A DNA stretch of 64,000 nt, from assembly GCF_003334405.1 (NCBI RefSeq), contig NZ_QOWM01000001.1; one strand, written 5' to 3'. The stretch's first letter is position 1; the number at the start of each line of letters is the position of its first letter. Source of the DNA: Escherichia coli (lineage in GTDB: Bacteria > Pseudomonadota > Gammaproteobacteria > Enterobacterales > Enterobacteriaceae). Of this stretch, positions 22,705-24,099 are shown piece by piece. The position numbers and the translations under genes were made by a program. Under the pieces are notes generated by a model. That model saw only the letters and a list, made by a program, of their open reading frames with translations. It was not told where the DNA came from and ran no database searches.

Positions 22705-24099
22705 ATGAAAACATTAACTTGCTTTAAAGCCTATGATATCCGTGGAAAATTAGGTGAAGAATTAAACGAAGATATTGCTTGGCGCATTGGTCGTGCATAT
22801 GGCGAATTTCTTAAACCGAAAACGATTGTTTTAGGCGGCGATGTACGTCTCACCAGCGAAACATTAAAACTGGCGTTGGCTGAAGGTTTGCAGGATGCGG
22901 GGGTTGATGTTCTTGATATCGGTATGTCTGGTACCGAAGAGATTTACTTTGCCACTTTCCATCTTGACGTTGATGGTGGGATTGAAATTACTGCCAGCCA
23001 TAATCCTATTGATTATAACGGTATGAAGCTGGTGCGTGAAGGTGCTCGCCCCATCAGTGGCGATACTGGACTACGTGATATTCAACGACTAGTGGAAGCT
23101 AACAACTTTTCACCGATTAACGAAAGCAGACGTGGCAGTTATAAGCCAATCAATCTACGTAATGCTTATGTTAATCACCTACTTAGCTATATCAACGTTA
23201 AAAATCTTACTCCTCTAAAGCTGGTGATTAACTCTGGTAATGGGGCCGCGGGCCCTGTGGTGGATGCTATTGAAGCCCACTTTAAAGCGCTCGGTGCACC
23301 TGTTGAGTTAATCAAATTGCACAATACACCGGATGGCACCTTCCCTAATGGTATTCCCAATCCTCTGCTGCCGGAGTGCCGTGATGACACCAGCAATGCA
23401 GTAATCAAACATGGCGCGGATATGGGAATTGCCTTTGATGGCGATTTTGACCGCTGTTTCCTGTTCGATGAAAAAGGACAGTTTATAGAGGGTTATTATA
23501 TTGTTGGACTGTTGGCTGAAGCATTCCTCGAGAAAAATCCAGGTGCGAAGATCATCCACGATCCTCGTCTCTATTGGAATACTGTTGATGTGGTTACCGC
23601 CGCAGGCGGCACGCCGATAATGTCGAAAACAGGACATGCATTTATTAAAGAACGCATGCGTAAGGAAGATGCCATCTACGGTGGCGAAATGAGTGCTCAT
23701 CACTATTTCCGTGATTTTGCTTACTGTGACAGCGGGATGATCCCGTGGTTGCTGGTGGCCGAGTTAGTGTGCTTGAAAGGGAAGATGTTGGGGGAGTTGG
23801 TACGTGATCGCATGGCTGCATTTCCGGCGAGTGGTGAGATCAATACTAAATTGGCGCAACCGGCAGAAGCGATTAACCGCGTGGAGCAGCATTTTAGCAG
23901 CGAGGCACTGGCAGTGGATCGCACTGATGGTATTAGCATGACTTTTGCTGATTGGCGCTTTAATTTGCGCACCTCTAATACTGAGCCGGTGGTGCGCCTG
24001 AATGTAGAATCGCGTGGTGATGTTAGAATGATGGAAAGAAACACGAAAATAGTATTTTCATTACTTAATGATAATACTATTATTTGCAATAAGGGATAA
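22705..24099 (+). CDS. manB: Phosphomannomutase (O-antigen copy)
   Basis: 464 aa; near-identical to cpsG over most of its length at protein and nucleotide level; divergent AT-rich last ~25 codons. Confidence 0.9.

Follow-up and report, generated by a model that had tools for sequence, protein, structure and literature searches.

The manB gene of the O144 O-antigen cluster of Escherichia coli appears, on balance, to be a chimera, whose body was derived from a colanic-acid cpsG lineage and whose last 25 codons are native. The account that we favor, with somewhat better than even confidence, is an ancient cpsG-to-manB replacement that was bounded by the outermost conserved blocks of the gene and was followed by an apparently GC-to-AT-biased divergence. 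The window, that is, the whole 64,000-nucleotide stretch of E. coli chromosome that was analyzed, carries, in this order, the colanic acid (CA) cluster, galF, the O-antigen cluster, gnd, ugd, and wzz. The O-antigen cluster was assigned to O144, as the products of its wzy and wzx genes match exactly the proteins named 'O144 family O-antigen polymerase / flippase'; its genes lie in the order wzy, three GT4 genes, manC, manB, the pyruvyltransferase gene, wzx, a GT2 gene, and gnd. This cluster was absent from all 5426 complete E. coli genomes searched. The O144 serogroup is rare, and a rough phenotype has been reported for its type strain despite a complete cluster (PMC7685785). The cpsB–cpsG region of the window is 97–98% identical to that of many E. 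coli genomes. The coordinates of the features are given in Table 1.

Table 1 Mannose-pathway genes of the window, their junctions, and the adjacent features
Feature	Coordinates	Strand	Basis and characteristics
cpsB, colanic-acid mannose-1-phosphate guanylyltransferase; comparison partner of manC	5307..6743	+	ORF; 97–98% identical to annotated E. coli cpsB; GC 0.556
cpsG, colanic-acid phosphomannomutase; putative present-day representative of the lineage that donated the manB body	6845..8215	+	ORF and translation; annotated cpsG in E. coli genomes; GC 0.55, GC3 0.64
O144 manC, apparently native, AT-rich, without a colanic-type segment	21239..22678	+	NCBIfam PRK15460, 888 bits; 64.7% nucleotide identity to cpsB
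manC–manB spacer; 5′ junction between the spacer and manB codon 4	22679..22704	+	Unlike the 101-nt cpsB–cpsG spacer; cpsG similarity begins at the ATG
manB body, colanic-acid (cpsG) type, apparently old and AT-shifted	22705..24023	+	Block of the maximum chi-squared scan (22705–24021); 82.4% nucleotide and 92.9% amino acid identity to cpsG
Longest exact run between manB and cpsG, 38 nt, encoding the metal-binding motif	23428..23465 (cpsG 7568–7605)	+	Exact-run comparison
Putative native AT-rich 3′ tail of manB, 25 codons and the stop codon	24024..24099	+	Divergence directly after GGTGATGT; GC3 0.25
Pyruvyltransferase gene 3′ of manB; its long reading shares 32 nt with the manB tail	24068..25129	+	ORF; named polysaccharide pyruvyl transferase, 353 or 339 aa

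The paralogues manB (22705–24099) and cpsG are both intact. The O144 ManB protein matched the phosphomannomutase CpsG/ManB profile of the alpha-D-phosphohexomutase superfamily (NCBIfam PRK15414) at 999.9 bits, with a cut-off of 801, over residues 1–455 of 464. Its translation keeps the phosphoserine loop TASHNP, the metal-binding loop DGDFDR, and the sugar-binding loop GEMSAHH. Judging from the intact reading frame and a dN/dS of about 0.02–0.03 against cpsG, the manB body is probably under strong purifying selection.

Codon-aligned over the whole gene, manB and cpsG are 81.3% identical in nucleotides, 91.0% in amino acids, and 55.9% at the third codon positions (GC3, 0.42 vs 0.64), while manC and cpsB are 64.7, 72.6, and 32.6% identical, respectively (GC3, 0.26 vs 0.62). 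In the original prediction, manB had been described as near-identical to cpsG, and the adjacent manC as far more diverged from cpsB. The asymmetry is real, and the strong divergence of manC was confirmed; the near-identity of manB was not. The "long identical nucleotide runs" that had been described are exact runs of 38, 26, 23, and 20 nt at the longest, and the longest run between manC and cpsB is 17 nt. Nor does manB have a chromosomal-type GC content, as had been supposed: its value of 0.45 lies between those of cpsG (0.55) and manC (0.37), and the O-antigen neighbors range from 0.27 to 0.33. The overstated wording fits the protein better than the DNA. Within the manB body (codons 1–440), the third-position identity to cpsG is about 57%, and among the 5426 complete genomes, no E. 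coli cpsG or manB exceeds 83.9% identity to the O144 manB. As a separate observation, contigs assembled from short reads of O144 strains break off at nt 753–755 of manB, within the 38-nt run shared with cpsG.

A clear contrast between the two gene pairs is also seen at synonymous sites. At the positions encoding the same amino acid, the same codon is used at 212 of 395 positions in manB and cpsG, against 155 expected from the codon usage (z 6.1), while it is used at 116 of 334 positions in manC and cpsB, against 104.5 expected (z 1.5). Since the latter matches are at the codon-usage expectation, the manC/cpsB pair is saturated at synonymous sites. The two synonymous codon identities, 0.537 for manB/cpsG and 0.347 for manC/cpsB, differ with a chi-squared value of 25.5 (p 4.5e-7). 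As a control, the co-inherited manC–manB pairs in the colanic clusters of other enterobacterial genera were compared with the E. coli cpsB–cpsG pair. The identity gap between the manB-type and manC-type genes was 0.03 or less in these pairs, and the GC gap was about 0.03 or less. Against them, the O144 pair is an outlier (identity gap, 0.177; GC gap, 0.08); in the O157 and O173-like pairs, the gaps are 0.36–0.37 and 0.16–0.17, respectively. Thus, manB and manC are almost equal in GC content in the compared pairs, except in these O-antigen pairs. Furthermore, the co-inherited pairs with manC at 65% identity have manB at about 0.62–0.72, as compared with 0.82 in O144. Together, the synonymous-site contrast and the control pairs show that the O144 manB and manC have different histories.

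The same data bear on the possibility that there was no replacement, and that manC and manB came together from one donor, with manB evolving more slowly through stronger constraint. The dN/dS of manB is very low, and at large distances the manB-type genes are somewhat more conserved than the manC-type genes (by 0.12 in Serratia plymuthica and by 0.115 in L072), as this explanation would have it. Nevertheless, we consider it very unlikely: the contrast persists at synonymous sites, the two adjacent genes differ in GC content by more than the co-inherited pairs do, and the co-inherited pairs at the same manC identity do not have manB at 0.82. Moreover, the identity collapses abruptly at codon 441 inside one gene, and 17 derived residues are common specifically to O144 ManB and E. 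coli CpsG.

The borders of the similar block are discrete. A two-breakpoint maximum chi-squared scan, applied to the concatenated codon alignment of manC and manB with cpsB and cpsG, selected the block at 22705–24021, with an identity of 0.825 inside and 0.642 outside (chi-squared, 117). The largest value in 200 codon permutations was 29, and none of them reached 117. This analysis clearly recovered the identity block that the original prediction had expected from a breakpoint check. On the 5′ side, the similarity to cpsG begins with the start codon of manB and the conserved TTAACxTGCTTTAAAGCCTA block; the manC–manB spacer has no similarity to the cpsB–cpsG spacer, and none was found upstream of the manB ATG. 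On the 3′ side, the junction lies at 24023/24024, where the similarity to cpsG stops after GGTGATGT. The last 25 or so codons of manB are divergent and AT-rich, and unlike cpsG, just as had been predicted. The first 18 codons of this tail align to the ManB C-terminus, with 7 of the 18 identical to CpsG. An alignment of this kind, with AT-rich codons, suggests that the tail is a remnant of a pre-existing O-antigen manB, and that the native gene would have been overwritten, rather than a cpsG copy simply inserted.

The positions of the junctions may provide a clue to the mechanism. The 3′ junctions of six manB genes (O144, O157, O173-like, L091, L093, and Xenorhabdus) lie within about 15 nt of each other, in a zone that directly follows a conserved (RGD) protein block, and in O144 both junctions fall on the blocks of conserved nucleotide sequence that lie farthest out in the gene. 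Such clustering would be expected if cpsG had undergone homologous exchange with a native manB that had diverged from it, because crossovers resolve only where enough identity exists. Two other candidate exchanges were rejected. One is a segment of the colanic type at the manC 3′ end, where the GC content rises from 5′ to 3′: the synonymous identity is at the expectation in all thirds of the gene. Another is a reverse conversion into the 5′ end of the E. coli cpsG, the first 40 codons of which are low in GC3: the same dip occurs in most genera.

The affinity of the manB body appears to be with the E. coli cpsG. The nearest cpsG-type relatives are the E. coli CA-type group (0.824–0.838 in nucleotide identity), followed by Pseudocitrobacter (0.771–0.772). 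In LogDet neighbor-joining trees, the body was placed as the sister of the E. coli cpsG-type clade in 177 of 200 bootstraps with codon positions 1 and 2, and in 171 of 200 with all positions. With the third positions alone, the grouping was recovered in 56 of 200 bootstraps, and the body was pulled toward the AT-rich outgroups; this tree is uninformative, because of saturation and composition attraction. In addition, 17 residues between codons 2 and 413 are common to O144 ManB and E. coli CpsG and rare in 15 other CA-type sequences, as compared with 5 positions at which the state is found in E. coli only. The dS between the O144 body and the E. coli cpsG is 1.2–1.6, which is as large as that between genera (1.3 for the E. 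coli and Salmonella cpsG), and the late split thus rests mainly on the replacement sites. Escherichia is represented in these groupings by the cpsG of E. coli, with E. fergusonii and E. marmotae among the species outside the set, and the donor lineage can thus be placed only provisionally. The top protein match, P0001 (557 aa), seemed at first to be a nearer relative, but it carries an internal duplication and is an artefact of assembly.

The intermediate GC content and identity of the body could instead be the average of a fine-scale mosaic, in which many short tracts had been exchanged between a cpsG-type copy and the native AT-rich manB. We give this explanation a minor but appreciable chance. 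The synonymous identity is 0.38–0.45 at 23065–23425 and 0.62–0.69 at 23425–23785, and its excess is uneven over four segments (z 2.7, 1.5, 5.0, and −0.2). Codons 121–165 are just 65% identical at the protein level and match nothing well among 88 other manB/cpsG homologues (93 were collected), and the O144 residues I102, I126, T212, and I305 are common in distant ManB proteins. However, the heterogeneity is not significant, since the search for an internal breakpoint within the manB body gave a maximum chi-squared value of 10.1 (permutation p 0.385). A 30-codon sliding search among the 88 homologues found no window with a clearly better source than the E. coli cpsG. Most of the O144-unique residues are absent from the distant homologues (V130, P148, N157, M361, and T381 all occur at 0%), while the residues shared specifically with E. 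coli are spread across the whole body. Finally, GC3 along manB runs parallel to that of cpsG, at a level that is lower by a roughly constant amount.

Clarification of the age of the replacement can be obtained from E. albertii, which carries the same cluster. The two clusters are 96–98% identical throughout, manB included, while the flanking galF and gnd are 87–91% identical. In the three loci fetched from E. albertii, the site was found to have no colanic acid cluster, and hence no cpsG donor: galF lies almost directly after yegH, with at most a 50-aa remnant of WcaM. The presence of the same diverged manB in a cluster without cpsG at the fetched loci indicates that the event is old, and that the capture predates the spread of the cluster across E. 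coli and E. albertii. There are 37 differences in manB between the two species: the state in the window equals its own cpsG at 12 of them, and the E. albertii state equals cpsG at 17. Polarized with cpsG, the same differences comprise 20 GC-to-AT and 9 AT-to-GC changes, a count that is close to the bias expected from a GC-rich, partly saturated outgroup and is no evidence for an AT shift. In three independent assemblies of E. coli O144, the manB sequences are identical. No sign of later conversion by the resident cpsG was found at the 37 interspecies sites, in the three O144 assemblies, or in the internal breakpoint scan, and conversion between manB and cpsG is not continual at this locus.

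The original prediction had attributed the mosaic pattern to gene conversion between the two mannose-pathway copies. The signature of a replacement, namely a body of the cpsG lineage with sharp junctions, stood up to the analysis; recent or ongoing conversion in this genome did not. For the latter, one may point to the high-identity block with its sharp borders and to the mechanism documented in O157, where the identity is greater than 95% (PMC3158064), a level that was reproduced here (95–96%) for O157, O173-like, and L091. However, recent conversion between the resident cpsG and manB is exceedingly improbable, as the two copies have 18% nucleotide and about 43% third-position divergence, with no identical run longer than 38 nt, and no E. 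coli cpsG allele among the 5426 genomes comes closer than the above limit of 83.9%. The same diverged manB occurs in E. albertii at loci without the colanic acid cluster, the discordant sites do not favor the resident cpsG (12 vs 17), and manB is invariant among the O144 assemblies (n = 3).

If the replacement is old, the body may have changed in composition since its capture. When the substitutions were polarized with ten other CA-type genera, 109 unique changes were assigned to the O144 body and 17 to the E. coli cpsG side, and 96 of the 109 were from GC to AT. Tajima tests with Salmonella, Pseudocitrobacter, Citrobacter, and Enterobacter were significant both at positions 1 and 2 and at position 3 (p 2e-6 to 4e-3). 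The asymmetry was gone when Serratia was used as the outgroup (16 vs 13 and 67 vs 67), and it was gone or reversed with Yersinia (18 vs 19 and 48 vs 77). The close outgroups are GC-rich, by which the apparent GC-to-AT changes are inflated, while the distant outgroups, Serratia and Yersinia, are AT-richer. The direction of the AT shift is thus likely, while the magnitude of the acceleration is uncertain, because the asymmetry is lost or reversed with the distant outgroups.

Other captured bodies were informative in this respect. The manB body of E. coli L093 is nearest to the Citrobacter and Salmonella cpsG genes, with a GC content of 0.51 against 0.57, and that of Xenorhabdus L092 falls among the enterobacterial cpsG genes, with 0.52 against 0.63 in the nearest one; in both, the unique changes are mostly from GC to AT. 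By contrast, the O157, O173-like, and L091 bodies are 95–96% identical to the cpsG of the window, with a GC content of 0.54 and symmetric branch lengths. Hence, the same AT tendency is seen in two other old colanic-type bodies, and the recently converted copies are unshifted. A possible reading, which we put forward tentatively and regard as rather doubtful in itself, is that the O144 body amounts to a dated natural experiment, being a GC-rich housekeeping-type sequence drifting in situ toward the low GC content of the cluster, with about 100 unique changes, of which about 88% are from GC to AT.

The lower GC content and much of the divergence might, on the other hand, have been inherited from the donor, if the conversion took place in a previous host and the body came from the cpsG of an unsampled Escherichia-related lineage. 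Several observations fit with this: the L093 and Xenorhabdus bodies resemble the cpsG of genera other than their own, the cluster is passed from species to species (as the E. albertii comparison indicates; see also PMC6927306), and E. coli is the species by which Escherichia is represented in the cpsG sample. We regard such an origin as unlikely, since no sampled enterobacterial cpsG has a GC content below 0.55, as compared with 0.45 in the O144 body. In addition, the L093 and Xenorhabdus bodies also lie below their nearest cpsG in GC content, mostly through GC-to-AT changes, which argues for change after the capture, and cpsG is missing from this site in all three of the fetched E. albertii loci.

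Returning to the replacement that we favor, the history of the gene would be as follows. A native AT-rich manB would once have been located 3′ of manC, and its last 25 codons would remain at 24024–24099. Codons 1 to about 440 would then have been replaced via homologous recombination of the non-reciprocal, gene-conversion type with a colanic-acid cpsG of the Escherichia lineage, the sequence having moved from cpsG into manB. The exchange may have been resolved in the outermost conserved blocks, TTAACxTGCTTTAAAGCC (codons 4–9) and CCGGTGGTGCG..AATGT.GAATC (codons 429–437). The replacement would be ancient, preceding the sharing of the cluster by E. coli and E. albertii, and the tract would have been left unrefreshed since. 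The captured body would subsequently have gained several times more substitutions than cpsG, overwhelmingly from GC to AT, so that its GC content would have fallen from about 55% to 45%.

Replacement of manB by cpsG is already known in Salmonella (Jensen & Reeves 2001, Microbiology 147:599) and in E. coli O157, and the finding as stated adds little. In Salmonella enterica, the O-antigen manB is reportedly of the colanic-acid type, beside an AT-rich, divergent manC, which is said to have been read as a recombinational replacement; the identity of these Salmonella genes to the resident colanic-acid manB is reportedly 93–99%, and their GC content reportedly as high. The O144 gene is alike in having a colanic-type manB body beside an AT-rich divergent manC, and it is unlike in its identity of 82%, its GC content of 45%, and a state that is common to E. 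albertii without a donor at the fetched loci. Compared with colanic-acid-like manB genes in general, O144 shares the asymmetric divergence, including that at synonymous sites, and the discrete junctions, while it has neither the near-identity (about 93–99%) to the resident copy nor the GC content of the colanic cluster.

In O157, cpsG sequence is reported to have taken the place of manB (Samuel et al. 2004, cited by Iguchi et al. 2011, PMC3158064), and the O157 manB is described as varying among strains through repeated conversion (PMC3158064). O157 and O144 have in common the paralogue pair, the manC–manB order, and the zone of the 3′ junction, which is followed by an AT-rich native tail. They differ in that the O157 body is 96% identical to the cpsG of the window, with a GC content of 0.54 and symmetric branches, and in that the O157 manB is variable among strains, whereas the O144 manB is invariant in three assemblies. 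The same direct-repeat paralogues also serve as substrates of recombination elsewhere in E. coli, giving chimeric phosphomannomutase genes as in O144. The type strain of O14 has been described as carrying a manB–cpsG recombinational deletion (Jensen & Reeves 2004, via PMC7685785); deletions have also been reported in 10 of the 12 LTEE populations derived from REL606, with 7 rearrangements being direct manB–cpsG recombinations (PMC4173774; bioRxiv 10.64898/2026.06.14.732165). Unlike O144, in which the intervening 15 kb is intact, these are reciprocal deletions between copies that are 96% identical, and the O-antigen genes were lost. With an identity of 82% and shared runs of at most 38 nt, manB and cpsG of the O144 genome would now be a much poorer substrate both for conversion and for deletions of the O14 and LTEE type, and further exchange is probably rare.

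What is new in O144 is the far end of the spectrum, that is, an old, unrefreshed replacement that is 18% diverged. As a practical matter, the 38-nt shared run is enough to break O144 short-read assemblies inside manB. The O144 manB also offers a handle on the change in composition of a captured sequence inside an O-antigen cluster. If the drift of its body toward low GC content is real, the AT-richness of O-antigen clusters would be at least partly generated and maintained in place, and would not be just the fossil of a low-GC donor. Such AT-richness might then come from a loss of GC-favoring recombination or conversion in DNA specific to the serotype, or from selection for DNA that is AT-rich and bound by H-NS. 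In that case, captured manB bodies could act as a clock and as a record of past hosts for O-antigen clusters.

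The O144 cluster (16300-27650 of the window) was not found in any of the 5426 complete E. coli genomes searched, and it is present on dozens of draft contigs. The E. albertii copy is 96-98% identical, whereas its flanks are only 87-91% identical; this difference is evidence of a transfer of the whole O144 cluster between species, as judged from sequence identity. The 3′ end of manB is not conserved between the copies: its product is 464 aa in the window, which has a TGC codon at 24085-24087, whereas E. albertii has TGA at this codon and a product of 460 aa. The final 32 nt of manB also lie within the pyruvyltransferase ORF when this is read as 353 aa; in other annotations, the ORF is given a later start, yielding 339 aa.

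In one E. albertii strain (locus L087), an O144-like cluster is degraded: wzy is reduced to a 220-aa fragment, the glycosyltransferases are truncated, and a single 781-aa ORF occupies the place where separate wzx (505 aa) and GT2 (313 aa) genes would stand. From these lesions, the strain is probably O-antigen-negative. In all three E. albertii loci (L085, L087, and L088), galF lies almost directly after yegH and the colanic acid cluster is absent from this site, so that no cpsG adjoins the O-antigen cluster there. A 50-aa WcaM remnant persists in L087 and L088.

Features discussed in the text and their coordinates
Feature	Sequence	Coordinates
38-nt exact run common to manB and cpsG	window	23428-23465 (manB); 7568-7605 (cpsG)
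manB tail end and pyruvyltransferase start region	window	24068-24110
Degraded O144-like cluster, one E. albertii strain	L087	6584-16254
yegH-galF region, E. albertii	L085	1225-5033
yegH-galF region, E. albertii	L087	2430-6240
yegH-galF region, E. albertii	L088	1222-5032
O-antigen manB, E. coli	L093	4001-5383
O-antigen manB, Xenorhabdus	L092	4001-5374

All of the short-read and metagenome contigs carrying the O144 manC-manB pair (L097, L098, L100, and L101) end at nt 753-755 of manB, within the 38-nt run that is identical in cpsG. Thus, the paralogue repeat breaks the assemblies of O144 strains within manB. The highest-scoring database protein, P0001 (557 aa; locus L004), is a CpsG carrying an internal duplication and comes from a 2.8-kb contig; in all likelihood, it is not a real gene but the product of misassembly at the repeat formed by manB and cpsG.

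Colanic-type manB bodies with native AT-rich tails were also found in two other O-antigen clusters. The body of the E. coli gene (L093) is nearest to the cpsG of Citrobacter or Salmonella (about 80%), rather than to that of E. coli, and the body of the Xenorhabdus gene (L092) is of the enterobacterial colanic type, with a GC content of 0.52 versus 0.38 for manC. Captured manB bodies may record the earlier hosts of an O-antigen cluster.
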